From assembly GCA_905178155.1 (NCBI GenBank), contig CAJINV010000005.1:3469902-3533901 (forward strand): a stretch of 64,000 nucleotides of DNA. The letters run 5' to 3'. The notes under the pieces are model-generated. The model was given only the letters and a program-made list of their open reading frames with translations, did not search any database and was not told the origin of the DNA. The DNA is from Amoebophrya sp. A120. Taxonomy: Eukaryota > Protista > Dinoflagellata. Numbering within the stretch: position 1 is the first letter of the stretch; the number at the start of each line of letters is the position of its first letter. Below, in pieces: positions 31,809 to 52,229 of this stretch. The translations under genes were made by a program, and so were the position numbers.

Positions 31809-33923
31809 TTACATCATATCGTCCACATTGTACAGGTCATGCGCTGCGAGCTTCACAGGCAGATGTGCACGATACCGGTCTGTGCATGCGTTCAGAAGGG
31901 TTGCAAATTCCGGGAGGGAATCAGATCGCGAGTCATCTGTAGCAACTAGTACAACATCATCTTCCGTATTTACTCCTCTTTCGTGAAGATCTTCCGATGA
32001 ATCCGTTCTACACACAATCGCCCGGTTTTGCATCGAGTTTGACAGCGGTACGTAGACGATTTGGGAAACGCTTTTGAAGAACGTCCTTAATTTTTCCATC
32101 CGCAAGGCCTGCACCAAATCGTCGCAGACTTCCGCAATTTTGATGTGTTCCGTGGAAAGTTTCGAATCCACAGACTGCTCCGTATTCCGCCACGCTGCCC
32201 ACTTACAGAGCTGGGCGAAAATGTGCTGCTTATTGGTTCGCGACGGGTTGGTGCTTGTTTTAGTGCTGGTGCTTTCTGATTTCTTACCAACATCTTCGCT
32301 GGCAGAGGCAGTGTCTTCCTCTGCAACAGAAGAAACGATGTCATAGTAGTCCGTGAAGAACTTCAAGTCGCGTTTTTCTGGGTCTGTGGAGATTTTGTGG
32401 GTGCAACAGCTGGCGAAGACGGCACCGTGGAGGTACATAGAATTTTTATGCTCGTCTTTGGTGCTCTCGTCCTCCAGCGCCAGCTCTCGTCCCAAATTCT
32501 CCATAAACCGAATGCAGTAATCCGTGCCGGCTCCGCAGAGATGCTTGCAGAGGATGATCACCTTTCTGTACGGCCTTAGCTTCTCAGCAGCAGCAGCTTC
32601 ATTTATCTCCCGCAACAATTTGAGAATGTCTGGCAAAACCGTGCTGACGCACTGCTCCAGCCTCTTGAATTTCAACTCCGGAAACTTCTCCTTCGGGAAG
32701 TAAAACTCCCCCTGACAGTTTTCGTGCGGCGTTCTCCTGTCGACGCCGACCGCAAAACTGTTGAAGATGAGGCCCGCGAGAAGAACTAGAGTCGCGTTCC
32801 CGCAGCCTAAGTCGATGATCACTGTCTCGCTGTCACAGTTGAGTTTGTAGAGCTGCTCTAGGAGGGAAGCTTCTTGGGCGGAAAACTTTTGCGCGTAGTT
32901 CTCGCCGCGGATGAAAAAGCTTTCGACAAACTGGAGTGCTTGCTTCGAACAATGCTGCTGCGGAAGGAAATCGTAGGGGACGTAGGGGGTGTGGGTGTGA
33001 GGGTTGTTGTTTTCGATTCTATTTTCGGCGTTTTTGCGCTTCATTTGTTCCTCGTTGATGTTCATCATCATACTATTCTCGTCAGTCCCTTCCGTCTCGC
33101 CACTACGGGTACTCGCAGGGGAGAGTGAAAGATTGCCAAATTTTGCGGACACAAGATCTACTTCCTCGCGCTGCGCCGAGATCATTCTATTTGTCGCATC
33201 GCGACTGGTGTCAACACCAGAACCCTGGTCTTCGCATGGCTGGCAGAGGAATCCAAAGTGTTCCAAAATCCTGCACCGAACCGAGTCAATCACCTCTGCC
33301 GGCGCGGGCTCCTTTCGCTTGGCCGCTTCGCGTTCGCGAATGACCGCGAGCTTGTGGGCCTCGCGTTCGTGGGGTGGGAGAAGTGAGAGGTCGGGTTTGG
33401 AGGCTAGATTGCTTGTTTTATTCTTCATCCCTGGTCGTTGTTCTTGCTGCTGGTCATGGTTCATCGCCATCGCGAGATCGTCGCCATTACTTTGGCCATT
33501 AGAAAAGCCCTGTGCTATGGAGCCGTGTTGAGACAGAAACGACGTTAGAGGGTCGGACCCGTGGCGTTCTTCCCTTTCATTATCGCTACTGCCCGTATTG
33601 TGGCAGGTTTTGTGCCATTGAAACAGCGCTGCCACCTTCTCTACTGCGTCGTATTTCACCTTCGATCGTTTCTCCCGCCGTGCGAGCTTTCGGATTTCAC
33701 GTCGGTGCTGCCGCTTCTTGTCTTGCTTACTTGTGGACGAGGGGGTTGCTGGCTCTGGGACAGAAATTCTCTGGCCGTTTGTTCCTGCGTTTACAGTGGC
33801 GTTTTGTGCTGTCGTGGGTTCTTGCTCGGTCTGTGACACTTCCTGCTCCTGACTATCGTCATCCATTTCGGTCCAGGGGAATGGTTCCGGAGGGTCGAGG
33901 TTTTCGTCAGACACTTTAGTCAT
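31809..33923 (-). CDS. TRM13: TRM13-like tRNA position-4 2'-O-methyltransferase, 704 aa, single exon
   Basis: QEASLL, IIDLGCGNATL, GVDRR, CKHLCGAGTDYCIR, GAVFASCCTHK, LR..L...F..V..IVYVPLSNSMQNRAIV follow the TRM13 motif order. Confidence 0.82.
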   Translation of the reverse strand: MTKVSDENLDPPEPFPWTEMDDDSQEQEVSQTEQEPTTAQNATVNAGTNGQRISVPEPATPSSTSKQDKKRQHRREIRKLARREKRSKVKYDAVEKVAALFQWHKTCHNTGSSDNEREERHGSDPLTSFLSQHGSIAQGFSNGQSNGDDLAMAMNHDQQQEQRPGMKNKTSNLASKPDLSLLPPHEREAHKLAVIREREAAKRKEPAPAEVIDSVRCRILEHFGFLCQPCEDQGSGVDTSRDATNRMISAQREEVDLVSAKFGNLSLSPASTRSGETEGTDENSMMMNINEEQMKRKNAENRIENNNPHTHTPYVPYDFLPQQHCSKQALQFVESFFIRGENYAQKFSAQEASLLEQLYKLNCDSETVIIDLGCGNATLVLLAGLIFNSFAVGVDRRTPHENCQGEFYFPKEKFPELKFKRLEQCVSTVLPDILKLLREINEAAAAEKLRPYRKVIILCKHLCGAGTDYCIRFMENLGRELALEDESTKDEHKNSMYLHGAVFASCCTHKISTDPEKRDLKFFTDYYDIVSSVAEEDTASASEDVGKKSESTSTKTSTNPSRTNKQHIFAQLCKWAAWRNTEQSVDSKLSTEHIKIAEVCDDLVQALRMEKLRTFFKSVSQIVYVPLSNSMQNRAIVCRTDSSEDLHERGVNTEDDVVLVATDDSRSDSLPEFATLLNACTDRYRAHLPVKLAAHDLYNVDDMM

Positions 33924-34744
33924 TTTTTTTTATGTCGAACCTGTCTAATGCCTCGCACATCAATGGAGGCGAAGCTTAAGTAGACCTCCGCTCCAACAAT
34001 ACTTACAACATGTACTCTTATAAGTGGTTTACAAGCAAAAGGGTTTTTTTTCAGAATAAAGTCTAATGTCGAAAAGTGAAGACCGAGTTAACAACAATAG
34101 GAAGTCAATTACGGGCTGTACTGGAATGTCACAAAAACGGCTACCTAGATAACATTCAATCATCTTATTTTCTATAGAGACAACAAGGATCAATATTTTC
34201 AATCGCTTTTGTTGATCTATCTCTTTGCGTCGATGCCACGATCTCCTTGTGTTCTCATGATTGCTGCGAAGGAGCAATTGGTGCGAAGGTTCGTAGGATC
34301 AATTGATGCGAGGGTTCAAGTTCATCATAGGGATAGGACCACTTTCACTGTTGATTCATAGCATCAATAGGTGCGAAGATCGGAATGTAGTGATTTTCAT
34401 CTATGTACATTGCGCCGCGTGTCTGTGTGCTGGCGCAACGGCGGTGTGTTTGATCTCGATAACTATTGTATCGGATATTGATAAATATTCTTGAACTTTC
34501 GGACCCCCGCGCCCCCTTTGAATCTTCTCAAAAAAAACGAAGGGCGCGCCGGACATTCTTCTCAAGAGAAAAAGAGCGGGCGCGAGAAAGTTGAGGAATT
34601 ATTAGCACGACCCACAGCATTTTTCGGATTCAACAAGGGGTCCGGGGACGCACTCCCATTTGTTTAGTAATATTTATCGACATCCGATTCTCAAAGACTC
34701 TTTTTCACGAACAGACCTGTGAGTAGAAGTTGGAAAACAATCAC

Positions 34745-36440
34745 GAGGCCGGCCGGCACTTCTCCAAGGGCAGCGGGCCGCAGCCGTGCTACAGGTCCCG
34801 ACAGCCCAGGGACATAGATACACACAACCACGCGAAACGTACTTTACCACCACGCCCCGAAGCGGACGCGGGGCCATTAGCTATTTGGGCCAGCCGGTGG
34901 CTGGCTGCAGGCGGGCGGCGGCGCCGTGCGTGCAAAATCATGCGCGGCCATCCGCGGCATCCGCGCCTGCGAATTCAGCGAAATAAGCGCGGCAGCTACG
35001 GTCCGTCAGCCGCCACAGGCCGGCGGGCAGCCAAGCAACACTGTGAAGGCCGGCCCGCAGGCGGAAACAAAGAGCCGGGGCCGAGGGGAAACGGGGCGCG
35101 GGCGGGCCTACCGGGGGGGCGAACGGGTGAGCGGGGCGGCGCCGAAGGGGGCGGCGCGCGCTGGCATGCAAGCGGAAGCGGGCGGCTGCCCAACCCGCCC
35201 GGCGGGAGCTCGGAGGCCACAAACCGCAGGGGCAGGCGCCCACGCACCGCGAAAATGGGCGGCCGCAGGGGGTTGCCGATGGGGGGAGGGCGCGGGCCGC
35301 GCGGTCTTCTCCTTTGCGTGGGCCATGGCTGCGCGCCTTCGGGGTTATACATGGGGTAGCCGGCCCAGCGCAAACACACCGGCCGCCGTTTTTCATTCGC
35401 CGGCCCCGCTCGGCCGAAGTTTTGCGCGCGCGGCGCCGCCCGGCCGCCCGACGAAATCGGGCCGACGAAGGCGGCGCCGGCCCGCGGGGGAGTGCGGGGG
35501 CGGGCCGCTGACTTTGCCCCCCCAAGCCCTCCAGCCCGCCAAGCCGCCCAACCTTGCCAAGTGCCTGCCTGCGAGCGCCCATAGCGCCCCCGAAGGCAGT
35601 CCGACGGAACGCGGCCCGGGGGCCTTTCGCGCGGCCCGGGGGCCTTTCACGCGGCCCATGAAAAAACATGGCGCCACAGGCCCGCCGCTCGCGAGTACGG
35701 TGAGAAGGAACCCGCTGGAGGCCGGCGGGGTGGCTCTGTTTCCGTGGGTGCATCTCCTTGGGCTTCCCATTCACAGAAATTGCGCGGAGTTTGCTGTAGG
35801 CGACGGCCCCGCCGACTTCTCTGGGGCTGCGGTTCCCATTCCTGGATCCCAAAGGACGGGGCTGCTCAAACACCGGATACGACTCCACCGCCTTCTCCCT
35901 AGCAGCTGCGCGTTTAGCAGTGCCGCTCTTTTTGCTTTTGCCGCGCCGCCACAATTCGGGGACCTAGCCAAGGCGGAGGCGCTTGCAGGGTAAGCCCCCC
36001 CCCCGGGCATGCGGCCCGCCAGTCACTCAACCAAAGGGAGCGCGGCTGGCGGCTATTCGCACAACACCCAGGCAGGGCGGCAGCACACACAAACGACGAG
36101 GCCCCCTCTGGCCCGGCAGCTCGGGCGGTCGCGGCGGCTTTCACGCAAAGCCAACAACCACACCGGGGGCCGGCGCTCCGCTCTCTAGGTGCGGGCCCTC
36201 CGGCGCCGTCTACCGGCGTGAAAAGAACAGGCACGCAGGTCATAGCTGCCGCCTTTCGTGCGCCCTTGGCCTTGCAGGGTGCGAGAGCAAGCACGCCGCC
36301 CGCGAGTCGGTCCGGCACGCGCGTGGCCCGCCGCGCGTAGGACTGGCATGCTCGGCCGCTTTTTCGGCGCGTCCGTTTTTGGCTTCAAAGTTTCAACTCC
36401 GGCGCTGTTCTTCACAAACTCAGCAGGTTACCACTGCAAA
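34745..36440 (+). mobile_element. GC-rich relic, probably non-LTR retrotransposon (LINE) reverse transcriptase
   Basis: 77% GC in 35041-35280 by manual count. Ordered motif ghosts LTLPPQ..PAKP..LAKCLPASA (PK...RPIS), GAFRAARG, DFSGAAVPIP (D..KAFD), TTPRQGGS (G.RQG). Highly degenerate. Confidence 0.5.
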
Positions 36441-36611
36441 GTGCAACTACGAACACACGTGGCCATCATGTAGACGGCGACACAAATGCCGCTGCAACTT
36501 GTTTGTAAGCGGCGACTCGTGCTTGTCCGTGCAAATGCTAGGCATCAATACTCACCGAGGACTCAGAAAATGAGAAACAACACACACCCACGGTCGTGCT
36601 TTGCAACTAGA

Positions 36612-39600
36612 CTACAATCTTTGCTGATTTGAAGAGGAAGACACCAGCTTCACGAAAGTCTGATACGTCATCAACTGGTCCTCTGATGACTTGCCACCTG
36701 CAGCACGCGGCACCGATTTTCTCCACAACAATTCCCCATTGTCGATGTTCAATTTGCGCATGGCGTTCAAAAACTCTTTTTTCGTCACCGCCTTGTCCCG
36801 GTCCTGGTCCATATCGTGAAAGAAATCTTGCAGCGCCAAGCTTTCGTCCTCTCCGTTTTTGCTCTTCCCACTTCCGCTTGGTTGCGCCACCGCATCAGCA
36901 CCACCTGTGGTCCTTCCCACAGCAAAAACCTTCTCCCGCAACTCGTAGTTCAGCGGCAGCGGTTGCAAACTGGCCGTCTCAACAAACCCCTCCCCCTCGT
37001 TCATCGCAGATTTCTTGATCTTGCTTTGCTTGCTCAAGCTGCTGCTACTCCCGGTAGTTGTCGTGCTGTTCTTCGGAGCTAAGCGTCGAATCAAAGCCCA
37101 CGAGCCGTCGTCCACAACGGCCAATACTTCCAGCGGTTCGCTGGGTAGAATCTGCCCCCGCAGATCCGCCCGAATGTGGGGCCACTTGCGGATGTAGAGC
37201 AAATCGTCGCTCGTGACGCGAGGGTTCGCTTGGAGGGATTTTGCCTTCGCATTTTTACCCCCTTGTCCTCTTCCGCGACCCACACCACCGCGCAGAAAGC
37301 TGTCCCTCTCCTCCCCTTCCAAGTCCGCTACCCGCTCGGTCAAGTACTCGATCTGCTCATTTTGCTTCAGAATCAACGCCCGCAAATCCGCGCTCCATCG
37401 GCGGATGTCGGACAATTTCGCGTCTGGTGGAATGTTCTTCCGCAACGCGGGGGCACGCTTGCTGTCGAAAATGGTCGTGGTGGTGGAAGAAGTGGACAAA
37501 GCAGTCGCCTTGTAGGAGTTTTTCGCTGAAAGCACAGACTGCTGGAAGCTACTGGTCGGCTGCAATGGCGCCGCGGTTGGTTTTGTGGTTGAGCGGGCCC
37601 CGTCATTTTCTTTATCCTTGCTCGTCTCAGCGCGGCTAGTTGTTTTCTCCTTTGAGCTCTTCTTCGACGATGAAGACGATGGCAGCAAAACGTTCTCCAA
37701 CAATCGATCCACATCCCGAAGCAGCGGCGCAGCGCTCCCTTCCCGCGGTTTGCTGCTGTTCGTTTTTCCACCTGCGTAGAAGTGGTCTGCCGCCGAACAG
37801 TAGTCCTCGTCCAGCTCAATTTTCACTACAACTTTCAGCTTCGGACCCTGCCGGCTCAACATCTGTCCGTCCTGTTGGTTCAAAGCAGCGGGGGTGACGA
37901 ACTCCCTGGGATCCTCTTCGATTTTGTTCGCCGCATACGGTTCCGCAACTGGGCAGTCCGCGGGGGACCAGATACCCTGCGGAAGCTCGTAGAACTCGTT
38001 GCTAAGAAGATGATGCGACTGGGAAGATGAAGACGAGGACAAGCTTGACCCCCCTCCTACGCCGCCTTTCTTCAGAACAATCTTCATGACGCCCAGTGGC
38101 CGTCCGTAGCGAACAGTGGTATTGCTGGCCCCTTCTACCGGTGAAGCCGGTACTTCCTGGTTGTGATCTCCGTCGGCGTAAAATGCCGCGGCAAAAAAAT
38201 CTTCAGGTTGTTCTTCCTCCGAAGTAGTTTTGTTCCCGCCTCCAAGGCCGAGGAAAGCGTCCAAGCCAAATTCGTCGTCGTCGCTGTCGTTCTTTTGGTC
38301 CTGATTCTCAGCGTCCTCCTCAAGCTGAAAGCTTCCCGGCTCTTCCTCTTCCTCTGTATTGCTGCTTTTCACAGGAGGGTCTTCTGATGAGCTGTTTTTC
38401 GAGGAGGACGCTGATGCGCCGGGGAGGTCGAGGCTATCACCCGGCTCGTCATCCTCCTCCTCTTCGTTTTGATTCCGAAACAAATCGTCTTTTTTCGTGG
38501 CGTTTACCGGACTCGAACCCAGGATGGCGGCGTTGAGACCTCCATCGTCCTCGTCGGACGAGCCTTCGACTTCGACGGACGTTGAGCTTTTGGAGGAAGA
38601 GGATAGAAGCTCCCGGCTTGCTGGTGCTTGGATTTGTGCTTGGGCTTGGGAGAGCTCCCCCTGTTCAGCTTCCCCATCGTCAACATCCTCGTCAAACGCG
38701 TCTTCTTCCTCGCTGTACGACTCTTCGGGCGGTGGATCGTCGCGTGTTTTTGATTGGGGTGGTTCTAGCGTATTCGCATTTATTGCAGGGCGAGCTTCCC
38801 CTTGTTCACTGCCCTGGTCACTCTGTAGCTCCCCCTCCTCCGCCTCCTTCGTCCCGCCAAAAAGTTGAAAGTGCTGTGCCCCTGCTGCAGAGCCAGAAAC
38901 CGCCGCGTCGAAACTGTTGCCGCTACTTCCAACGTCCTCCCCGCCATCGTCTGCCGAGGACGAGCTCTTCCCTAGCAGCTCGTCTTGCTGCTCTCTCGTC
39001 GCGTCGTGTTTCTCGTCGTCATCTGCGTCCGCAGAGGGGATGTTGCTGGCCTCATCCTGCTGCTCTATGTCCACTTCCTCGTCCTCACTGTCGTCTTCCC
39101 GAAGCAGGGCAGCGAGAAGTTTCGCCGCAGCTGCGTCCTCTTCGCTTTCCTCGCTTGAGGTAGCGCCGCCCTCGTGACCTGGATCAGCATTGTCGAATCC
39201 CAGAGAGTCCAAAACCTTCGGAAGACTCTTGTCGCCCGCTCCTTTGGACGATCTAGACAGTTTTTGTTGACCAGCACCCGACGAAACAAAGTCGGCGAGA
39301 AAATTATTGCCGCTCGTGGAAGTAGCGTCATCAGGACCTCCTGCAGTTTCTGTTGGTGCTGCTGGATGTTTGGAACTAGACGAGGGATGAAACTCTGCAA
39401 GATTCCCCTGAAGGAAGTCGTTTGCGTCGGCGGTTTCCTCATTGCAGATAGGAGACTCGTGCTCCTCGTCCTCATCATGCAACATCTCGGGGTTTTCATG
39501 CATATTGTAGTCACACGCCACTGCTGCTATGGGTACGACTACCTCTGTTCCAGCAGGACCTCGCGGAGCCTGCTGCGAAGAGGCCAACATTACCTCCTGC

Positions 39601-40373
39601 TCCTGCAAGGTGCGTCGGAGGGCCCTTGCGATCGGTGATTCTTCTACTGATTCAGTGGCATCATGATCCTGATCGCTTTGCCTACCTCCACCTTTAATTT
39701 CGGCTACTTTCGTTCTCTCGCTTCGAGCTCCACCTTCTCGCGTCTGTCTCTTCGCAACCTCATTCGTATAATCGCTTTCAACCGGTGTGGCCGAAACCAC
39801 CCTGAAGAGGTAAATGGAAACAGACTCGACCTCCTCCAACCCGCGCCACTGATGCAGTAAATCCGTTTTTGTGCAGCTCCGGCGGGATTTTCGATGGCGT
39901 GACGACTCGTCCCCATCATCGATTGTTCCTGCCGCTCCACCACCGTGCCATGAAAAAATGCTGTTCGCGCCTGCGGCGACTGGATAGTTGTTTTTCAAGA
40001 ATAACTTTTCCATCTCCTTGCTTCGTACGACGTGAGAAGTGAAGCAGTGAATTCCGTTCACCTTCATGACGAAGTAGAGCTCCGTGTTTTTCGAAAAACT
40101 CAAGGGTGCGACGAGTTCCAGATCCCGCGCTTCTAGACGGAGAAGACTCAGGCTGAATTTAGGGCCAGGCGTGGTGGATGCCAGGGCCGCTTTGTTCTGG
40201 CCAACTACATCCTGGACAGATGTAGCTCCATGTCTTTGTCGGGAAGTAATTTTCGATGCAGCTAGTACCCCTGCCCCACCAGGGCCGCCTGCGCTCGCCG
40301 ATGGATCTTTAATTGGCTGCAGCTTGCCTGGTTTTTTCGTCGGGGAGAATGCCGGGGAGGTGAGACGCGACAT
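36612..40373 (-). CDS. ~1253-aa protein: split C2-like domain with acidic insert, coiled coil, SH3b-like domain, C-terminal EF-hand pair; single exon
   Basis: Long ORF, first ATG at 40373. LRLEARDL...LYFVMKVNG...TSHVV; RPLGVMKIVL...KLKVVVKIEL; LYIRKWP...GQI...EPLEVLAVVDDGSWALIR...EGFVETASL; FHDMDQDRDKAVTKKEF. Confidence 0.8.
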   Translation of the reverse strand: MSRLTSPAFSPTKKPGKLQPIKDPSASAGGPGGAGVLAASKITSRQRHGATSVQDVVGQNKAALASTTPGPKFSLSLLRLEARDLELVAPLSFSKNTELYFVMKVNGIHCFTSHVVRSKEMEKLFLKNNYPVAAGANSIFSWHGGGAAGTIDDGDESSRHRKSRRSCTKTDLLHQWRGLEEVESVSIYLFRVVSATPVESDYTNEVAKRQTREGGARSERTKVAEIKGGGRQSDQDHDATESVEESPIARALRRTLQEQEVMLASSQQAPRGPAGTEVVVPIAAVACDYNMHENPEMLHDEDEEHESPICNEETADANDFLQGNLAEFHPSSSSKHPAAPTETAGGPDDATSTSGNNFLADFVSSGAGQQKLSRSSKGAGDKSLPKVLDSLGFDNADPGHEGGATSSEESEEDAAAAKLLAALLREDDSEDEEVDIEQQDEASNIPSADADDDEKHDATREQQDELLGKSSSSADDGGEDVGSSGNSFDAAVSGSAAGAQHFQLFGGTKEAEEGELQSDQGSEQGEARPAINANTLEPPQSKTRDDPPPEESYSEEEDAFDEDVDDGEAEQGELSQAQAQIQAPASRELLSSSSKSSTSVEVEGSSDEDDGGLNAAILGSSPVNATKKDDLFRNQNEEEEDDEPGDSLDLPGASASSSKNSSSEDPPVKSSNTEEEEEPGSFQLEEDAENQDQKNDSDDDEFGLDAFLGLGGGNKTTSEEEQPEDFFAAAFYADGDHNQEVPASPVEGASNTTVRYGRPLGVMKIVLKKGGVGGGSSLSSSSSSQSHHLLSNEFYELPQGIWSPADCPVAEPYAANKIEEDPREFVTPAALNQQDGQMLSRQGPKLKVVVKIELDEDYCSAADHFYAGGKTNSSKPREGSAAPLLRDVDRLLENVLLPSSSSSKKSSKEKTTSRAETSKDKENDGARSTTKPTAAPLQPTSSFQQSVLSAKNSYKATALSTSSTTTTIFDSKRAPALRKNIPPDAKLSDIRRWSADLRALILKQNEQIEYLTERVADLEGEERDSFLRGGVGRGRGQGGKNAKAKSLQANPRVTSDDLLYIRKWPHIRADLRGQILPSEPLEVLAVVDDGSWALIRRLAPKNSTTTTGSSSSLSKQSKIKKSAMNEGEGFVETASLQPLPLNYELREKVFAVGRTTGGADAVAQPSGSGKSKNGEDESLALQDFFHDMDQDRDKAVTKKEFLNAMRKLNIDNGELLWRKSVPRAAGGKSSEDQLMTYQTFVKLVSSSSNQQRL

Positions 40374-40849
40374 TTTACCGATTTTCTTGTAGATATTGAA
40401 CACAACTAATCGCAATCCTCATCAACCTGCATAAGAAGAAGAACTTCTTCTACAACTAGAGGGATATGAGCAATAAAAGTGTCCTCGCGCTCCTTTTTCA
40501 TCCCGTTGGCGTTGCACCTTTTACAAAGTTAGTGAGTACTTTCTCTCAAGTGCACCCCCCCCAGCCCAACTTCTCTCTGCCTGCCGTTGTGCTTGCCACC
40601 TTAGTTTGCTCTTCTCATCGGTCTTGTGCACGGTCTTCTCCTTCGAGGACCTCGAGTCATGATTTTATCCACGAAGCCCTGAGGACCGCCCTCGTAGCTC
40701 GACGGCGAAAATTGTTCGCCGTGTTTGATGGGTTTGCGTGCCACACAAATTGGGTTTGGTGCTCGTCTCTCTTCTTTCCTCGCCAGAATCGATAGCACAG
40801 AAGGGTCTCTCACCATGAAGAGGCCACCGAGCTGCGCCTACTTCTGCGC

Positions 40850-42400
40850 CTGCCCACATTCATTAGCCAGCAGAGCGGTAGGGCGGGAGCTAGGTAACTA
40901 CACAAGGAAAAGCGGCCACCCAAGCGCAAGGGCACTAATGCCGATCGCCTCCTCTTTTATTCAGTTGAGTGCTCGCTTCCGCCAAGTTCCCGGCCGGTGT
41001 CGGAGCTTTGGGCAAATTAGTATATTTGATACTACAGAGCCACGAACGCGCGCGCATGCACTGGCTGCGCAGGTGGCGGGGGGCACGGAGTGTGGGGCAG
41101 GCACTCACTGGAGGATGGGTGGATGGAAAGTTGAACCAAGGTGCGCGGCGGACCGACGCTGGCAGTTGGTGGCCCCACCCCCATGCGTGCCTTCCACAAC
41201 ATGGCATGCGGGGACGGAGGCAGACAGACGCAACAACCAGCCACGGAACCTGATTGGCCCGCCGGTCGCGCGCGCACGATCAAACGATGCTTGCATCCAT
41301 GGCGATGGGTGCCGGCGCGCCCCTCCAACGCCGCTCCTTCGCAATAGGCCCCGACGCAAAAGAACCAAACCCCGGGAAAGGGGGGCCGCCGCGGATTACC
41401 TCCAGCACGAACGGGGCGCCTCGCGCCTGCCCAGATCAGACTTGCGGGGGCGCGCCGGCCGGCGGGCCGACGGACCCGCCGCTCCAGATCAGTGGCGCAG
41501 CCCGCTGCGCGCGCGCCGGGGTCGATCCTACAAGGCGCCCAAGGGCGCTGCCTGCAATGAATTGGTTCACATGGGAGCCCGGCCGCCCGGCCGCCAAGGT
41601 GCGTGGCCGCGGCTGGCTGGCTCGCGCGCTGTCCCCCGCGGGGGCCTGCCCACATAAGGATGGCGGTCGATGCAGATTGGTGATTTCCATACCACCCGCC
41701 GCCTGCGAGATAGCCAACCAGGAAGGTCGCCACCCCCTGCGCGGGCGCATGCCATGCGTTCCGTCCCACCGGAGGCCCAGGCGCCTGCCGCGCATGCTTG
41801 CAGCTCGACGACGTCGGCGCGGCGCGCAATTAACTCACGGACCACGGGGGTGCGTGCGCCGGGCGGAGGGGCGCCCAACCTGCAACCAAGACGGCCCGCC
41901 ACAGATGGGCACGGGGCGGGGGACGCTACTAACCCAGTCGCCACACTCCGCCCGCTGCCTGATGTCCCGCCGCCTCTCCCCCCCGGGGCGCCGCGTGGCA
42001 TGTGCCGGGCTGGCGCAAAACCGAACGCATACCGCTGGCACGCGCCGCCAGCCTGCCCGCGCGGGTCTCGGCGCCTTTCGAATTCGCCACGGGCTGCCTC
42101 GCCATGGAGGTCCAAGACGAAAACCCAGGCCAGTTGGTTTTCGATCGGGCCGCTGCGTCGCCACTTAATAAGGGCCCAGCCCCGTCGATTCTCTAAACAA
42201 GCGCACCGCTTTCCTTGTTTAGCAACGGTCGCAATAAAGCGGGAGGCCGTGGCTGGCCATCACAGCCGCGAATCATGGCGCCGGGCTCGACAGTCTGAAT
42301 CTGTGTCATCGCAGGCAGCAACACAGGACGAACGAAATCCACAGACGGGCGGGCTTCATTTAGTATGTTCGGCAAGTACGAACTGCGCCCGAACACACCC
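40850..42400 (+). mobile_element. GC-rich relic, possibly Ty1/Copia pol
   Basis: 80% GC in 41401-41520 by manual count. Ghost motifs RKSGHPSARAL (pre-integrase GHPS), NWFTWE...KDGGRCRLV (RT start), LRPLPDVP...KPNAYRWHAPPA (K.LYGL..AP) occur in Copia order. Confidence 0.4.
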
Positions 42401-42993
42401 TGCTGCGTGTCCTTCGTTGTTCTTGAGTTCGTTTAGTAAATTCTTTTTCTCGGCGCCAATTTCATTTTCGTGATATTCCTGTGCTCCCTATGTCTTGATA
42501 TGACTAAGAGTCTGGTGTACAGTTTCATTTTTCAGCATGCTTGTCAAAAAAGAAACGATCTTTCAACTGATTTCCGAATTCGCACACCCAGCTAATCTTT
42601 CAGATTATGTCGATGGGTATTCATTTCCGAATCAGTGTAGCATCGTTCGGCTGGAAACATAGACAAAAGCTTCATCACGACAAGCACCGCATGCCGTGGC
42701 ATCGACAAGGCTTAGATCATCATCGTCTATCTTCGAAATTTAGTTTTTGTGCTTTTTCTGATCTGTACGAAAAGGAAACAAATGATAAACAATTTACGAA
42801 ACAAGAGGAAACGCGTAAACAAACACGTCCCCTATTTATGCTATTTCTTCATCATCTTCTTCGAAACTTGCTTGAGTGAAATTTGGCTGCTTAAAATTTC
42901 TAGTACAAAGTACAACTTCATCACGTACCATTCTTTACCACCCCCGACAGCCGAAGCCGTCCGCTGTTCCTCCTCTTTTCAAAAAAACATTCC

Positions 42994-44574
42994 TCAGCCC
43001 CCCGGAATCTTCTGGCTCTTCTCCTGCTGCAAGGTGACTGACACTTCCGCTCCCGTTTTCTTCCGCACAAAGGGTTTTGTCAAGTGCCACTTCTCCTTGT
43101 CGCCGTCGCTGAGAACCCCGTTTTCGGTCGGCAAAGTCCCTCCGTCCGGCCCCGGTTCGTCTATTATTGCCGGGGTAAACATCTTCCCAGACAGCTGCGC
43201 CTCTTCACTAGTTTCGGCTCCACTCCCGCCGCGCCTCTTCGACAACAAGCTTCCGGGGATTCGTTCCGGCACCCCCAGAGGCACGAGCACCTGCCCCCGC
43301 CCCGGCCGGAACCCGATCGCCCTTATCCTTTCCTTCGGCGGTAGGATCGGAATACACGGTGCCGCCGCGATTTGCGCAGCGGACAAACCCATGCACGGCT
43401 CCCCCCACGGCTCTCCCTCGTCTAACACCATGTGGACCGTGGCGCCGCGGTTGTAGTACTCGACTAGAACGTCCAAGGTGTGCACGCTGGTGCTGTAGTC
43501 CGTTTCGTTGTTCGGTTTTCCCGCCCGAGGTGTCTCCCACCCCGCTGGTAGATGTGTCACGTTCGAGGAGAAAGCGGAAATCGCAAAGGTACCGTTCACA
43601 CTGGAGTCGTTGTTGTCGTAGTGGTCCGTGTTAAACGAATACTCCATCCCGGAAAATCCAATCAACACGATCGCAAACCCGGTGCCGTTGATCGCCGACG
43701 GTTGCACGTACTGTATCTTCGACCGGTCGATCACCCAGCTCTGCCCGTCCAGCGCGTAGGTTCGGAAGGGTGAGGCCCGGAGTTCATTTCCCTCCCCTTC
43801 GCAGCTGTAGTAGTCGTGTTCCGGCGCCAGGTTCACCTCGCCCTCGCAGGTCCCGAGGTTCTCCAGATCCGGATCGCGCATCACAATGTTGTTGATTTTC
43901 CACTGCATCGGACGCAGGAACGGATTGTAACCGAGGGTCGGAATCATATCTGAGAGTTTTGTACAATAGGAAGATTTGTGGCTGCGTATAGCGCTTGTGA
44001 TCAATACTTGTGCCTGACATCAAACATGCATATGCAAATATGATGACTATACCAAAGTGCAAAAACTATACGTGTGTGTATCCTGATCGTGGGCGTTCCG
44101 TACCGGCAGTCATGCTCTGGGTTGTTACACGGCATAAACCCAAACTTCTCCCACCTGTCGTTCGGTGCTAACGTTAGATTTTTCCCCCACGGCATGAGAT
44201 ACCCGTCCAACATGGCGTGTATCTTTGTGCGGTTCACCGGGTCCCGGTAGAACTGCACAAGATGGGGTCTCCCATCCGCTATCACGTCGTTGTTCAGCGG
44301 TATCGATTCGTCATCGTACGCTTCGCTCGGATCGATGAAGTACTCCGTGTAATTGACATCGTCGCGCTATAAGAGTGCACCACTTCGTCCCCTCCCCCTC
44401 ATTTTGCGATGCAAAATACCAAATCCATTCCTTGCCTGCCTTTCCTTTTGGCACTTTTTGCATGACAGGTTTTCTTGGCAGCTCAAACAGAACTAAAGTC
44501 ATGGGTCGTGAATTCGTCATGCAAAACCTGCACTCTTGCCGGCGCTCGTATCGCTGCTCATGCCATGCATACAA

Positions 44575-44609
<35 letters not shown>

Positions 44610-47453
44610 GCGTCGAAAATGTCTTATTGGCCGAACGCTTACTGCGTGACCTAGTGCTTCCATACAAAAACACTTTCCGCTGGCGCACCCTCTTGGGTAT
44701 CCTAAAGCGAGTTACACCGTCCGGCGTTGTTCTCACTTTGTAACGAGGACCCCGGGATGCGTACCTGTTGGCGTCTCCCAAATGAAGGGGAGTTGAAGTT
44801 GTGCACCCTCATACGGCCTCCATGTGCCGAATCGTTCTCCGCGTCACCAAAAATCGGTACCGCTGGTGGTGCTCGTCGCCCTTCGCCACGCTCATCTCTT
44901 TCATCCTCTTCGTGAAATTCACGTCCTCACTGTCGAACGTGAAGGTGTGCGTCGTCGTCCGGTTGAACTCCGGCCCACTCAGGTCGGTGGTGTTGGTCCA
45001 AATTTGAAACGCCGCACCGGAATCAAACATTTCGCTGCCCCAGTGCGAGTGCGCACTCAACTCGTTGATGTTCAGTGCGGTGAAAAAGACCTCGATCCGG
45101 TCGATGTCGATCTTCGGCCAGAGAAAGTCCGGTCGTTCCGGGCGGTACCAGAGGGACAACCCCGGTACGGCGTGCATGTCCAAGTGACGAAACTCGGTCC
45201 GCCAGTCCGGTTTGCGGGCGAGAAAGTAGGAGCCCTCGACCGGGTCTATGCCGCCAAGGTGCTCGTCTTCGGAGAAGGACATCGGTTCTATCTCGTCCCA
45301 GTAAACGTCTGCGGGCTTGTTCAGAGTGGCGTTGGTGTAGACTAAGAAATCCAAAGGGGGTGGGGACGTTGTGGTCGTCGTCGGGCGCTTGGTATTGATG
45401 TAGGAGTCGTACTTGAGGGAGGTCATGCAAGTGCATTTGTCCGTGAAAGCGTAGGAGGGATCGCAACTGTTGTAGACCGGCCAAAACCTGTACAGCTGCG
45501 CGTTCCAGTCGTGGTAGCCACCGCTGCCTTCCCTGTGTTGTGTTTTTATCATGCGCTACTTATTGCATGATTGGCAGCTGCATCGACTTGTCATGCGTAG
45601 GCCGCGCCTTTAGAGAATAGATCAAGATGGAAGTAAAGCTCCTTATCACACGACTTGATATAATACCACACAGTAAACCCCGCGCAGTTGTCGGAATCCT
45701 GCATGCACTTCGCTATTCCTTCATTTCGTGCGTGTTCACCACTTGACTGCTCAATCACCCGTCTCAGTGGGTATTCCGAGTCAAAGCACATCTGTCTGTG
45801 CTTAAAAGCGTACTCACCCGCGCCCGCACCTGCTTTGATGTTCAGCTTTTTCCTTGCTTTCTCCTGCGCGGCGAGAACGGCTTCGGTTTCAACGACGTTT
45901 TCGCTTTCTCCTTGTGCTTCTTCGGCTTCAATCTTGTGTTTGTGGTTTTTCTGCGACGATAACCTCGACGCAGCTTCCCCTTCCGCTGCTCTAGTGCTTT
46001 TTGCAGTTTCTAATTCTGCGCTTTTGCTCACTAACGATGGATCTGGAGGCTCTTTGACGGATTGTGTGACTACAGAATCACTGTTCGTTTCGCTTCTCAT
46101 CCTCTGCGCACCACGACCGCCACCAGCTCTTATCTCCTCGTCTTTGCTTTTCACATGTGCTTTTAACTTTTCCAGTGATGTAACGCCCTCCTGTTCGTGA
46201 TCCTTCTCCGCATGAGGATGCAATTCTGCTTCATGATCATGCCCCCCTGTGGTCGGTTTCTCTTTCTTCTGTTTATCATGCTCGGTATTAATCGCGGAAC
46301 CGTGGTCCTCCTGCCCTCCTACCACCACCCCACCTTTCTGGAGGTACTCCTTCAGCTGCTGTCTCCGGTGCAAGATTTCGCTGTACGAGACCTGGTTCGC
46401 GTTCGTTCCGCCAGCCCTGTGCACCTCTTCCCCCGGTTTTCTCCTCGCGATTTTTAGCGAGATGGTTTTCTCGGTCAGGGAGGGGTCGTCCGCGAAATCT
46501 AAATTGTCCCGAAAGATTAAATCGTCCTCTTCTTCCTGCGTCAGAGGCGGTAACTCGCTGTCGATGATATCAGATCTTGACGGAAGATCTTCATACACAC
46601 CATCAGCATCATCGGCCCACAGGTTTTCCGGCAGCTGCGCCGAGTTCATTTTCGAGATCTGCTCCTGCCACAACCGCTCCTCCTTGATCTCCTCTTCGTG
46701 GCCCCATCCTTGACTACTGGAAGACGGGTAGCTGCCGTGCTTTTTTCTGCCGATAATCGCGGGGCCGGCTTTCAAAACGGTGTCTCCTGGGGTGGTCCTT
46801 GGATAGCTTGTGACCGAAGTGGTTGCGAGGAAGTAGAAAGTTGAATGTTTGAAAACGAGCGCACAAGAAGCAAGGACGGCAGCTTTCGTAGTAGGTCGAG
46901 TGAAAAGCTGCAAATGCGCTGTTGTCGCTCCGGGAGGTCGTCGTCGACGGCGGCGACGGAACCGCGAGGGGTGATCGACGGCTTTTGGCGTTGGCCTCGA
47001 AGAATTTCTACCAACTTGAACTTTCATCGTCGTGGCGACCGAGCTCACCACCGCAAATGTGGTTGTGTCTTTGCCTTTGCTGTTTGGTCTTCTTCTCCTC
47101 CTCCGGTTTTTCAGGGTTCTTGTTTCCTCGTTTATTTCGTTTTGAATTTGCAATTTGGACGCACGTCGTCGCCCGCGCAACGCCGACCACTGCGTGCTGT
47201 TGCCCACCGCGTCTTCGTATTTTGTGGTTTTTTGACGCGAGCTGTTACAACGGCTGCGGGTCCTGGAAGGAGATGAGGGTGTACTGCTCGAAGTAGAGCA
47301 ATGGTGCGAGCTTGTGCTTGCGCTCGAGGGATGGCTTGGCGAACTAAACATCCTATGTTGTCTTCCCGGTACGCGGGTAGGGCCGTCCGTTCCTTCATCG
47401 CTCGCCGTGTTGCTGGAGCCCGCAGCTCGTCGCCTTTCGGCAACCAAAGTCAA
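42994..47453 (-). CDS. Hypothetical, probably membrane-anchored or secreted protein (~1,250-1,280 aa) with a Cys-containing PAN/apple-like segment
   Basis: Exons ~47453-45603, 45555-44815, 44553-44541, 44362-44072, 43949-42994 join in frame. Hydrophobic stretch AAVLASCALVF..STFYFLA, many NxS/T sequons, KCMQDSDNCAGFTVW. Start codon uncertain. Confidence 0.65.
44368..44540. mobile_element. Introner E8, 173 bp, one terminus decayed
   Basis: TIR AAGAGTGCA; left end TAT, right end GCC; direct repeat CGCGC/GGCGC (4/5 match). Removal gives RYERDDVNY. Confidence 0.8.
44575..44607. repeat. (ATG)11 microsatellite in intron 44554-44814
   Basis: Read directly. Confidence 0.95.
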
Positions 47454-48149
47454 ATGCGCGTCGGATCCGCCCGCACGTCATGTGTTGAGCCCCGACCACG
47501 AATTCAGGCAGCGGACTAGATGCCTGTTGAACTCATCATCATGCGAAGTCTGCAACTACTTTTGTTTCTGTCGTGTGGTTTTTCGTTTCTCTCTGACCTA
47601 CGTAAGTGTGTGTAGTTAGATGCACATGCAGTATGATTTTGTCAAGCATGCAGCGTCTTCTTTCTGGCTTTGATTATTCATGTTGTGCCCGAATGTCGTC
47701 CAATTCCAATATGATCGGATGCATCTCGATCTCCAATTCGATGCATTCATGTATCCTCTACCACGACTCACCCTGACGCTTACGCAACTTAGCCTCATTT
47801 CATTATCCATGCAGAAATACCAATGGAGACGCTCTTTCGCTCGCCTTGTCGTTTTCATGAATGATAAACGGCACGTACTACAGATAACATGGAGAGACAC
47901 GGCACGTCGTATGGGGCCTGAGGCAGGTACATGTTGGTTGCCCCAGGCCGCAGCTGGTTCCAAAGAGCAATCGTTTGCAAGACAGACTCTCTCATTGCCT
48001 GACCCGGTCGCATCCCAACTACAGTAGCCGGAGGAGGAGGACGAACAATGCTGCAAAAGGCCCACAAGAGACCTACTAGCGCTGGCCAACGAACCATATA
48101 CCAAAATGTGGCCAACTTAATGTGCGTGAAGATTGATTAATATTCTTTC

Positions 48150-50260
48150 GCGACGGGCAGCCCACCTACAACCCGGCGCGCTGCGTGCAGATTGCTTGGG
48201 TTGGTCCTTCCAAGGCACACGCATGGCCCGCTTGCCGCTGCGACATCATAGCCAACCAGGCCACACTCACACGAGACGAGGCAAAGGCGCGCGCGCTCAC
48301 CTGCAAGCCGCCGCCCGGGCGAGCCAGAGTGTGCGGCCACCCGGCGGCCGGCCACTGCAAGACCCGGCGCCCTCTTGCGCTTGGCTGAGCCGGGGTAAGC
48401 AAGTAAACAACCAAAGCGGGGGCCGGCCGACGCAAAACGAGGGAGAGGACTGCCACAAACCTGGCGGCCCCACTCCCACAAAGAAATTGGTGAGAGAGCT
48501 GGCCCGCCAGCAGGCCCGCCCCAAGCAGGGGCCGGCAAACATAGACGCCGCACAATGGTCCATCGAGCAATGCCCGGCGGCCGGGGCGCCACCGACCTCA
48601 AGCAATTGGGCGGCGCGCGGGGCGCCCCGCCCGGAGATGACGGCGCCCGGGCCCTGCCTCGCAGATTGGGAAAGCTAGCGAGCAGGCGCGCGCGCAGGAT
48701 GGAAAACAATCAAGGGAGGGCGGCCGGGAGGCGGCAGCAGCCTTGCCCCTGCCCTGTACGGGCGGCAGCAGGCGGGACCGCAGCAGGCGGGCGCCCCCCA
48801 CGCAAACTAACCGCCCGAGCCCCGCGGCCCTCTCGGGGAGTTCGCGCCCCTTCTTCGTGCGGTGCGTAAGCCCAGCGCGGCCGGCGCCGGCGGGCGCCGC
48901 GCGGGGGGGCAGGGCCAGGGGCCGCCCCTGCGAGTTTGTCTCAATCCTAGAAAACGGGCCGGCCCGGGCCGCCGGGCGCTGGCTTTACGCCAATGACAAA
49001 GAAAAAACAATGGGCCGGGCCCGCTTCGGGTGCCGCCGTGCGTCTGGAATCATCCGAAACACCTCCGAACCCCCATCATATTCCGGGCTTTTCGGGCCGT
49101 GAATGTGGGACACGAGATCTCGGAGCCCGCGGCAGGGGCCCCCCCAAACGCTGGCTGGCGAAGGCGCGGGGGCCATTGAACAACCCGCCGGCGCGCCCCC
49201 CTGGGCAAAATAGACCGGCGGCCGCCTGGTTCGTTCCGGTTGCTTTTCGCTCTTACTCGCAGCACAGCCCCCACACGATGTGACTACTTGCATGGAGCGC
49301 CAAGCGTCGGCCGGCCATGCTGCCAGCCAAGCCCCCCCTTCCTATGCCTCCGTCCGGCCCAGCCCTCTGTCAGTCACGGCCCCCGGGGAATTCTACCTGC
49401 ATCACAGTGCTACACTGTGAATCGTCTTCCACCGGGGCCATGAGGCCCCGCAGCCCCGTGGCGGTCTCCCGCGCCAGTCGCTGCCGCTGGTGCTCCTCAC
49501 ACAAGTCGCCGGAATAGTGCGAAGCGCTCGCGCCATGGTTCCCGCGAGCTCGTCAGCGGCGGGGGCCATTTTCCGGGCAATTGCTTCGGCGGGCATGCAA
49601 ATGCGCCCGGCGGCCCTTCAGGTGCTCGCGGGGCCCGGCCGTGGGTGCGGGGTGGGCTTGCGCCGATTCTTTACCGGGGAAGCGGTGGCGATTTTGCCGC
49701 GCGCCGGGGTGTAGTGGGCCCGACGCGACGCAGGGCTTTGGCACAGCCCTTTTCCCACAATCGCGACCGCGCGCGCCGCTTCTTTCGGCGCGAGCGCTTC
49801 AACGCCTCCCGCCAAAGTAAAAAAAGGCCCGGCCGGCGCCCATGCATAGGTAGACAACGCAAGGGCGGCGGCTGGCAAGCGCCTGGGCGGCCTGCAACTG
49901 GGGCAGGCACGCACGGGGTCGCTTTCGTCCCAAGGCGCTCGGGATGCCTCTCCGACAGACTGGGAGCTCCTCTGTGGAGGCGGCGGCGGCCTCGTCGCGG
50001 GCCTCGGTGGCCATGCGCTTCACGGCGACGCACTGGCCCAAGTTCTCTTCGGGGCTTCTGCGCAGCGAGTTTGTAGCCCCCCAACTTCCGGAGGTTCGGA
50101 ATCCACTCAGAGGAGACAAAAACGAGCCAGGCCCCCACCGGGCCGCTGAGAGTTGGCGCGGCGATCTAATCGGAACGCGAACAATCTCGGGCCGCCGCGG
50201 GCGCAGGCAATCTATCATGGGCCGCCCTGCTCACAAGCATCGACGAAATCCGTGCTGACG
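48150..50260 (-). mobile_element. GC-rich relic of a LINE ORF2 (AP endonuclease plus reverse transcriptase)
   Basis: 75% GC in 48841-48960 by manual count. Minus-strand order: DFVDACEQ, FRLDRRANSQRPGGGL/LVFVS (endonuclease R.DR...GGGV), GAPAGCSMAP (G.PQG..SP), RFLGL....W (KYLG). Many frameshifts. Confidence 0.62.
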
Positions 50261-51268
50261 CGCGACTTGCTAGGCCTCTCGCTCACAAAAAAAACCTCGC
50301 CTCCGAGGTTTAGATTTAGAACACCAACCATTGATGTGGTTCTCAGGAAGATGGCGACCACACGAAGCCTGGAGCGCGTGTCTGATGCTTGAACTGCTCA
50401 AATCGCAGATCCACAGCGGTCTACTGTTAAAGGTGGAGATCAATATGGGAATTCATTGCTGCATCGACCACTGCTGTAAAAAATAGAACCAGCACTGACA
50501 ACTAATTTTAGACATGCTCATGCTATTGGAGGCAGAGTCGCAGTACTTTTTGAGAGAAAGAACGAAGCCTGTGAGGCGCAGGTTAAAAAAGCAAAATTGT
50601 CCGCCAGTCTATCATCAGCTGCCGTTCCGCCAGATCTCTTTAATGAACGACGGCACTACGCTCCTCTTCCTGCTGCGCCGAGGACAAATTTTCAATGATT
50701 GCGAGTATCTATGTATACACAGCCCCAGAGCCAGCCAACGCGTTGCATTGTCGACTCTAAACGAAGCGCACTTTATTCCTCCAGCAAAACGATGGTGTGA
50801 GTCGCCGAAACTGCAGCAATGCCATCTTCAACATGCCATCTTCAACTCCAACATCGTGGTGGAGTCATAGTCGCTCGAACTACGTCGTGGCTGCTCCCCT
50901 TGAAAGCCGTTCGGAGCCCCAAGTTGAATAGGCAATGGAAAGCGCGGCGTGGTGTCTTTGACGGTCGTCATCCGCCGACACGAAGACTTTTTGAGGTCGG
51001 CGTCAGGTTCTTGCAGAGTCTCGAAACTGCCGGCTCTCCCTTTCGTGTATACCTGCAATTCTGCTCGCTCGTTTCAACGAGGAGCTGCAAGCCAGTTGTA
51101 GTCCCAGTCCGCACGACAACCGTCCACAATCCTAATGTCCGGCCTTCGGTCTCGGTGCAAATGCTGTACCCAGCTGCACCGCGATCACGCTCCAAGCGGC
51201 ATCCTATAAGAAGATCGCTTCTCAAGTCTCCAGTCCCGCTGCGAAGAGACGAACAAACTGATATCATC

Positions 51269-52229
51269 TCACTCCACCTTCTTCGCCCTACTGTTCGCCG
51301 TTAGCCTGTGCAGTTCCTGAATCGGCCCGTGGATCTCCGCGTCATCTGCTGACCAGGTTTTTGTTCTCGACGACTTCCGCCGCAGATCCGGCACGGGTTT
51401 CGCCTTCATCGTGGAATCTGGATGCACCAGCTCTTGTCGATCAGCAAGCTGTAGTGCAGCGGCGTTTCCGACACCAACGTCTGCAGAAGTTGAATTCATT
51501 GCTATTTTCTCAGCAGATAATTCCTCTACTTCCTCATCCTCATCCTTCGCGTTGATGTAATCAATTATCACGTTCCACGCTAAACACCCGCAGTTGACAA
51601 ACAGCACCCGGTAGTGCGGGGGGACGAAGGCAAAATTGACAAACTGAAACGGAACCCACATGGTGCAGCAGGCGAGCCAGCTGGGCAGGAAGGACTTCTC
51701 CATCTCCTGCCTGATCTCCGGCAGTTGTTGTCCCTGCATCGCGCCCAACGTCAGGTAAAAGCAGGGCAGGTAGGCCAGGGGAACGTGAACAAAATTGTCG
51801 AAAATGGCGGAGACCATGCCGAACTTGAGCGGGGAAAAGTGACCCCAGACGCGGGCGTAGCTGTTTTGATTATCACGGTTGGTAGGCTGTCAGCGCGGCT
51901 GCAGATATGATCTAAATCTGTATGAGTAAAGAAACAAAGCACGAAGTGCAACTAGATCACGAGCAACACAACAATGAAAGCTGCTACCAACAATTACAAC
52001 TAATAGAATACACTCCGTATATGAAGGTGTCCACTCCGCCCTGGTACCAACCGCAAAATGTTGTGAACGCGAGATTTCTGCCTGGGTCAAGTGTCTCCCG
52101 TTTTTCCACGACAAACTGGCAGACGACATCACCAACGAAGCCCAACGTTGCGCCGGCAAGGGTGTTGGTCAAGTAGGGTCGCTTTTCGAGGAGTTTTCCG
52201 TAGCTCTCGAGCAAGCGACGGTAGAGCAT
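51269..52229 (-). CDS. Mpv17/PMP22 family membrane protein
   Basis: YGKLLEKRPYLTNTLAGATLGFVGDVVCQ, DPGRNLAF, FDNFV, WVPFQFVNFAFVPPHYRVLFVN. GT-AG intron at 51861-52011. A further phase-0 intron (51053-51277) could extend the CDS to 50828. Confidence 0.92.

Follow-up and report, generated by a model that had tools for sequence, protein, structure and literature searches.

The 64,000-nt stretch of the genome of Amoebophrya sp. A120 analysed here (the window) carries its long genes on the minus strand, and three consecutive gene spacers within 16 kb of it are filled by GC-rich islands of 1.5-2.1 kb (Table 1). An initial annotation, made from the letters alone, had taken these islands for relics of long interspersed nuclear element (LINE) and Copia retrotransposons, driven to 75-80% GC by a genome defence that would be the reverse of fungal repeat-induced point mutation (RIP). 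The compositional signature of the islands is real and unexplained; neither retrotransposon identity nor a genome defence finds support in the window.

Table 1 Islands, neighbouring genes and associated features (positions within the window)
Feature	Position	Strand	Remarks
GC-rich island 1	34745..36371		71% GC; odds of T after C/G vs. after A/T 0.36
GC-rich island 2	40820..42286		68% GC; odds of T after C/G vs. after A/T 0.40
GC-rich island 3	48148..50227		69% GC; odds of T after C/G vs. after A/T 0.38
Multi-copy inverted-repeat element (introner-like or like a miniature inverted-repeat transposable element, MITE)	34470..34688		57 nt from island 1; arms 34470-34496 and 34662-34688; not GC-shifted, an internal control
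Possible degenerate left terminal inverted repeat, island 1	34701..34789	+	weak; window picked post hoc; p 0.013 vs. local shuffles; reversed control p 0.047
Possible degenerate right terminal inverted repeat, island 1	36315..36418	-	partner of 34701..34789
Best inverted match to 50174-50240	48142..48202	+	both edges of island 3; not significant, p 0.08
20-nt tandem duplication, island 1	35609..35657	+	2.5 copies, one A/G difference
Inverted-repeat/hairpin stretch, island 3	49374..49443		z -3.4 for 90 nt, picked post hoc
Flanking gene, TRM13 methyltransferase	31812..33929	-	best named relative in Amoebophrya sp. A25, 47% identity
Gene between islands 1 and 2	36615..40418	-	1268-codon frame, weak EF-hand; 4-fold-site GC 0.56; RNA-type contig 36548-40441 spans the gene
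Spliced gene between islands 2 and 3	42435..47590	-	introns: two GT-AG, one non-canonical of 451 nt (44363-44813); joints present in four RNA-type contig sets
Flanking gene, Mpv17/PMP22 family	51272..51889	-	RNA-type contig extends to 50426

The limits of the islands were set with an order-2 Markov model in a leave-one-out procedure, two islands being used for training and the third being located. All three were retrieved, each from the other two, and the sole additional call was a weak 260-nt segment (29364-29627) inside an open reading frame (ORF). Within the limits drawn by the initial annotation the GC content was 0.70, 0.67 and 0.69, compared with 0.52 for the rest of the window, and no 1.4-kb window outside the islands was above 0.60. 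The segmentation and the GC content thus confirm three sharply bounded, GC-rich intergenic islands. The figure of 75-80% GC is right for the best 240-nt windows (0.80, 0.78 and 0.78 in islands 1, 2 and 3) but not for whole islands, which have 68-71%. Nine other non-coding stretches (0.6-1.6 kb) have 43-47% GC; margins facing the islands are at 51-53%, against 44% elsewhere, and in the intervening genes the 4-fold degenerate sites show no clear rise in GC (0.62 vs. 0.59, p 0.11). No GC codon periodicity was found in the islands, and each has an excess of A over T on the plus strand (p 0.009-0.017), opposite to the minus-strand genes. The islands do not align with one another, the best pair scoring 34.8 through one 47-nt match against a shuffle maximum of 32.6.

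Contamination of the assembly was considered and rejected. In DNA-type contig sets, single difference-free contigs span 34661-44537 and 44739-52000, and these short-read sets may be the source data of the window itself; contamination is unlikely because the same contigs run through islands and flanking genes alike. Among the matches listed, bins inside the islands had only the depth of the spanning contig, save for small additions at 48216-49483.

The islands share one signature: T is lost after C or G and before C, on both strands, and is kept in A/T runs. The dinucleotides AA/TT are over-represented (odds ratio 1.71, bootstrap 1.51-1.88), and TC/GA (0.75, 0.69-0.83) and GT/AC (0.72) are under-represented; these biases persist within 100-nt blocks and on both strands. 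The survival of A/T in AA/TT runs and the shortage of TC had both been noticed in the initial annotation and are confirmed. The shortage of TA that it also described is not special to the islands, where its value of 0.65 lies above those of host ORFs (0.45) and spacers (0.60). Windows of 240 nt with at most one TA and at most one TC are confined to island 1 (60 of them, overlapping, from 35007 onwards); the other two islands have none.

The odds of T rather than C were then compared between contexts. The ratio for sites after C/G relative to those after A/T is given for each island in Table 1, and the corresponding ratio for sites before C was 0.60, 0.71 and 0.72. In ordinary host 4-fold sites these two ratios were 1.19 and 1.52, in other non-coding DNA 1.16 and 1.66, and in the 4-fold sites of GC-rich exon windows 0.95 and 1.62, compared with 0.38 and 0.68 for the islands; the island margins gave 1.29 after C/G. 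The p values of such odds ratios are inflated, neighbouring sites not being independent. In a control set of 470 windows of 1.5 kb from 204 loci, both context effects were present together in 0 of 24 windows with a GC content of at least 0.62 and in 9 of 408 with a GC content below 0.55.

Simulated mutation supported a dependence of A:T loss on neighbouring bases. Context-free A:T-to-G:C change fitted the island trinucleotides poorly from all three starting sequences that were tried (G 408-589), so that the context-free GC bias named in the initial annotation as the contrary finding fits badly, whereas neighbour-dependent change fitted far better (G 33-138; noise floor 5). The best starting sequence was host non-coding DNA, from which transversion shares of 0 to 1 fitted about equally; pure transitions were the worst or near-worst fit from each start. 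As the start is assumed, the composition speaks for neighbour dependence; it does not favour T>C over T>G and does not show a direction of change. The shared, context-dependent hypermutation claimed originally therefore stands as a neighbour-dependent loss of A:T in three non-homologous islands, but not as one of unrelated transposable elements, and its assignment to T>C/A>G is not upheld, since the composition is fitted at least equally well by T>G/A>C and there is no ancestral copy with which to polarise the changes. An ADAR- or TadA-type deamination of adenine was rejected on the strand symmetry of the signature and on context; the preferences of these deaminases do not match the island context.

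The proposed targeting of repeats was not borne out. No close copy of an island, at 80% identity or more, was found in the DNA contigs compared with the window (among the matches listed), and the multi-copy inverted-repeat elements of the window, at about 44% GC, do not match the islands. The bin containing the element beside island 1 has about 20 times the contig depth of the island bins, and many other contigs match there. Three copies of one inverted-repeat element showed 5 A:T-to-G:C and 7 G:C-to-A:T changes among 17 polarised changes; the multi-copy elements are shorter than 300 nt and may be too short or too young to show an effect of the RIP kind. A 270-nt inverted-repeat element has three copies, at 2340-2604, 8211-8476 and 16938-17207 (93% and 79% alike), and a second inverted-repeat family is found at 5204-5389 and 8568-8777. 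A 217-nt direct repeat (94%; 4990-5206 and 5391-5606) flanks a 185-nt inverted-repeat element and resembles a target duplication of unusual length or one insertion nested in another.

The islands were searched for retrotransposon homology in several ways. Among 84 stop-to-stop island frames compared with Pfam no transposable element family was found, eight frames having weak unrelated matches, and no transposase family appeared in this general scan, in which no mutation-aware transposase profile was used. A word-indexed protein search with the frame at 34727-35356 gave none among 7950 candidates (longer proteins only), and two motif scans of viral contigs gave no match. A phmmer search of 1.84 billion proteins with an 83-residue frame of island 3 gave one match, to a bacterial Ig-repeat protein, which was rejected as its score is the sum of six short repeats. 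The best match of an island 1 frame in 33 genomes with eukaryotic contaminant contigs had E 0.01 per genome. Neither hmmsearch with our own Copia and L1 profiles nor ordered-block chain scoring, the sole test of motif order, gave anything, or anything consistent, respectively. Rfam had no match in the islands and one sub-threshold match outside them. Residual 3-periodicity was weak and confined to island 1, and a coding-ghost model, which has little power after moderate decay, reached a maximum z of 1.7.

The islands were also compared with reference elements by local alignment in which frameshifts are permitted and the substitution bias can be chosen. The references were 115 non-LTR (long terminal repeat) loci from metagenomes, 107 Copia-motif loci from genome contigs, many of them eukaryotic contaminants, and further elements from contaminated genomes; the dinoflagellate-type Copia references comprised 120 of 194 relatives, and no Amoebophrya Copia was among the references. 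Profiles were made from 33 plant-type Copia ORFs, 35 L1 ORFs, 32 divergent or dinoflagellate-type Copia ORFs and 14 Gypsy ORFs. Under permissive settings, with A>G/T>C bias on the plus strand, the plant-type Copia profile gave 23.7 bits for island 2 (reached by 0 of 60 shuffles) and 24.8 bits for island 3 (1 of 60), and under reverse, neutral or transversion models these islands did not score above shuffles. These are two of 36 strand-by-model tests; one other test of the set, on the opposite strand, also beat all shuffles, and shuffles elsewhere scored up to 32 bits. By eye the alignments look like noise, that of island 3 being out of domain order.

Elsewhere the scores stayed near their controls. 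Our own profiles of plant-type and of divergent or dinoflagellate-type Copia, used to look for ordered integrase, reverse transcriptase and RNase H homology, gave at most about 25-28 bits, near shuffle level; ORFs of dinoflagellate-type Copia, L1, Gypsy and CRE-like elements gave control-level scores in the islands, as did LINE endonuclease and reverse transcriptase (the profile of 35 L1-type ORFs, and CRE-like and other ORFs taken singly). With 282 ORFs, scores of at least 26 bits were obtained in 3, 2 and 6 of 1692 cases on the real strands and in 8, 6 and 9 of 1692 on reversed or complemented controls. Thus the ordered LINE and Copia motif ghosts of the initial annotation were not recovered clearly above shuffled or reversed controls in any test, and the frameshift-aware comparison with Copia, L1, Gypsy and CRE references was at control level save for the marginal A>G/T>C Copia scores. 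Five held-out Copia elements, decayed in simulation, scored 36-434 bits at up to 15% random substitution and 3% indels, and 25-52 bits at 20% substitution and 4% indels. None of the islands, accordingly, is a moderately decayed member of a family that was tested. They are assigned to neither Copia nor LINE; very old relics, Amoebophrya-specific lineages, R2/R4, Penelope or DNA-transposon origins may lie behind them. Many prokaryote representative genomes of GTDB were found to hold contaminant eukaryotic retrotransposon contigs (plant-, algal- and Symbiodiniaceae-like Copia, Gypsy and LINE). A long insert lies between integrase and reverse transcriptase in some contaminant Copia polyproteins (L227, L229, L231), and it appears SET-domain-like by eye.

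The ends of the islands were compared in 120-nt windows picked post hoc. Terminal inverted matches gave p 0.013, 0.066 and 0.083 for the three islands, with 0.047, 0.22 and 0.16 for the reversed control, and may be regarded as suggestive in island 1 and weak in islands 2 and 3. Terminal direct repeats, which a Ty1/Copia LTR element would carry, were not significant in any island (p 0.16-0.92, windows up to about 230 nt). No island is palindromic or tandemly built as a whole, and no motif or repeat is common to the islands.

The search with the TRM13 protein gave four matches, one of them the window's own, and its closest named relative (Table 1) indicates that the window is from the Amoebophrya lineage (Syndiniales). 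RNA-type contigs cover the genes beside the islands. Four RNA-type contig sets from one study gave no cover over the islands, which was not counted as evidence of silence, and a raw RNA run had no reads anywhere on the whole stretch and so gives no such evidence either. The non-canonical intron of the spliced gene, which ends in CG..TA on the plus strand and is removed by splicing in all four sets, is a repeated introner-like element, since many other contigs match parts of it. A short minus-strand frame adjoining island 3 (47619-48116) matches zf-met2 (E 3e-5) and is probably a small gene. Further away on this strand are a 2930-codon open frame (18252-27041) with no Pfam match at E 0.01 and an AlkB-type 2OG-Fe(II) oxygenase domain (1383-1832; PF13532, E 1.3e-5), which is not of the TET/JBP family. 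Codon bias is strongly heterogeneous within one gene: GC at 4-fold sites is 0.78-0.88 in 42997-43949, 44812-45555 and 52982-53608 and 0.58 in 45594-47477, which is the 5' exon of the same transcript as GC-rich exons.

The explanation preferred here, tentatively and at somewhat less than an even chance, is that the islands are old, dead insertions that have been changed where they lie by a local A:T-to-G:C process dependent on neighbouring bases. They are probably relics of mobile elements whose class is no longer readable, and their sharp edges, plus-strand skew and weak terminal inverted matches fit inserted DNA. Since the same odds ratios recur in three sequences that lack homology to one another, their composition would have been acquired in place by mutation, and one process acting on all of them is the simplest account. 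This process would be local, since the context is absent from synonymous sites and from other spacers. The cause may be a mark on silent DNA, most plausibly an oxidised thymine, 5-hydroxymethyluracil (5hmU), the mispairing of which, or its excision followed by error-prone bypass, would give T>C or T>G. Bypass of abasic sites after excision yields mainly T>G. Each change would make the adjacent A/T more mutable, a positive feedback, and with the loss of T beside G/C reinforcing itself A/T runs would survive. TC, a reported context of 5hmU, is depleted in the islands. In the cited sections of one source, 5hmU is made by TET/JBP enzymes and is enriched on repeats in core dinoflagellates, older work on Crypthecodinium having placed it at TA and TC (PMC11572971), and uracil-type base excision with abasic-site bypass is described, in the part cited, as a documented mutagenic route (bioRxiv 10.64898/2026.08.21.746158).

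Several points weigh against this reading. No ancestral or sister copy of an island was found, hence no change in the islands is polarised, and no significant homology to transposable elements emerged from the profile, protein or frameshift-aware searches. Retroelement coding DNA was not the best-fitting starting sequence. The context models have six fitted parameters and an assumed start, and even their best fit (G 33) does not come down to the noise floor of 5. The GC-rich control windows are mostly bacterial coding DNA. The multi-copy inverted-repeat elements of the window are not GC-shifted (0.44-0.45 GC), and nevertheless lean slightly the same way in context (0.71 after C/G; 1.22 before C). 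The high 4-fold GC of three conserved exon frames could also reflect a GC-rich equilibrium. TA, the other reported context of 5hmU, is not depleted in the islands, and no report of 5hmU or of a TET/JBP enzyme in Amoebophrya was found in the open-access papers searched. The cited part of the base-resolution mapping of 5hmU in Breviolum gives no motif (PMC11071213).

Ordinary decay would require no special process: the islands would be the oldest unconstrained DNA of the region, brought to a GC-rich equilibrium by a mutation bias of the whole genome or by GC-biased gene conversion, perhaps at a local recombination hot spot, with the other spacers younger or constrained. The crowding of the islands into consecutive spacers, the raised GC of the margins that face them and the GC-rich exons just mentioned all suit this account. 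GC-biased gene conversion is expected to be largely context-free, whereas context-free models fit the islands badly with or without transversions, the context is missing from GC-rich 4-fold sites, 4-fold GC in the intervening genes shows no significant rise and nine other non-coding stretches stay at 43-47% GC. Ordinary decay is accordingly judged rather unlikely, though by no means negligible. Import of DNA that was already GC-rich, in the form of elements flanked by inverted repeats or of foreign fragments (the dinoflagellate host being one conceivable source), followed by nothing but decay, would explain the sharp edges of the islands, the absence of close copies among the matches listed and the coincidence of the best terminal inverted matches with the compositional boundaries in islands 1 and 3, and a single donor genome would still account for the shared odds ratios. 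The lack of GC codon periodicity, of any homologue and of mutual homology, a reversed terminal-repeat control that does nearly as well and the absence of the signature from one dinoflagellate-type contig (L265) make such an import unlikely.

The full reading of the initial annotation, in which the relics are of LINE and Copia elements and owe their inactivation to T>C/A>G hypermutation aimed at repeats, gains from the two plus-strand Copia scores that exceed shuffles under that bias only, from the A-over-T skew on the same strand and from the weak 3-periodicity of island 1. Those scores are marginal among 36 tests, another of which beat all shuffles as well, and are lower than shuffles can reach and than simulated Copia relics up to 15% substitution and 3% indels; with dinoflagellate-type Copia, L1, Gypsy, CRE and the 282 single ORFs at control level, neighbouring multi-copy repeats unshifted and transversions fitting equally, this reading is very doubtful. 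A selected composition in functional chromosomal elements, such as a replication origin, a centromere-like sequence, or boundary or regulatory DNA, would be in keeping with islands that are clustered, near-unique, similar in size and identical in compositional style, and that persist in a compact genome. The islands have no common motif or repeat and no Rfam match, however, and boundaries of core dinoflagellate domains are GC-poor in the cited part of PMC11453091; a functional role seems most improbable. A reverse-RIP genome defence in Amoebophrya, in which silenced mobile DNA is marked at thymine and carried from A:T to G:C in S-T(-C) context (S being C or G), with positive feedback, until it ends as unrecognisable single-copy islands of 70-80% GC, is quite unlikely.

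Such a defence, if true, would be the first mutational defence directed towards GC and would give dinoflagellate 5hmU a mutagenic role. Dead eukaryotic DNA usually drifts towards AT. If old insertions altered in place are the right explanation, the islands would record a hitherto undescribed mutational signature, a local drive towards GC that depends on neighbouring bases, in a dinoflagellate lineage that branched early; this could be why many repeats in these genomes resist classification and would allow a direct test of 5hmU mutagenicity in vivo. Ordinary drift or imported DNA would make the islands a minor note on genome composition. No report of such islands in Amoebophrya, or of RIP directed towards GC, was found among titles and abstracts of the open-access literature (figures and bioRxiv supplements being outside this scope).

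Four known systems can be compared with the islands. Fungal RIP, described in the cited part of PMC3318451 as homology-dependent C-to-T transition in duplicated DNA, likewise leaves sharply bounded, context-skewed blocks on both strands between ordinary genes. The dinucleotide context on both strands is seen in the islands and action on duplicated DNA is not; they are skewed towards GC, are without close copies and lie near untouched multi-copy elements, and transitions are not shown. The islands are therefore not classed as RIP, since the duplicated-DNA test failed and the direction is reversed and unproven. GC-biased gene conversion or neutral drift would also shift unconstrained DNA from AT to GC, possibly locally, but should be largely context-free and should lift adjacent synonymous sites, and neither holds at the islands. 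The marking of repeats by 5hmU in core dinoflagellates resembles the preferred reading in being directed at thymine and associated with repeats in a sister lineage, and TC is depleted in the islands; it differs in that the cited parts of PMC11572971 and PMC11071213 describe a silencing mark, not a mutagenic one, and in that the islands have no TA depletion. Amoebophrya itself has introner or MITE-like inverted-repeat elements and non-canonical introns, according to the part cited of Farhat et al. 2021 (PMC7789003). Several such elements are present in the window and, like the islands in the preferred reading, are inserted and non-coding; they are flanked by inverted repeats, short, multi-copy and about 44% GC, whereas the islands are 1.5-2.1 kb long, near-unique and 69% GC, with terminal repeats that are weak at best.

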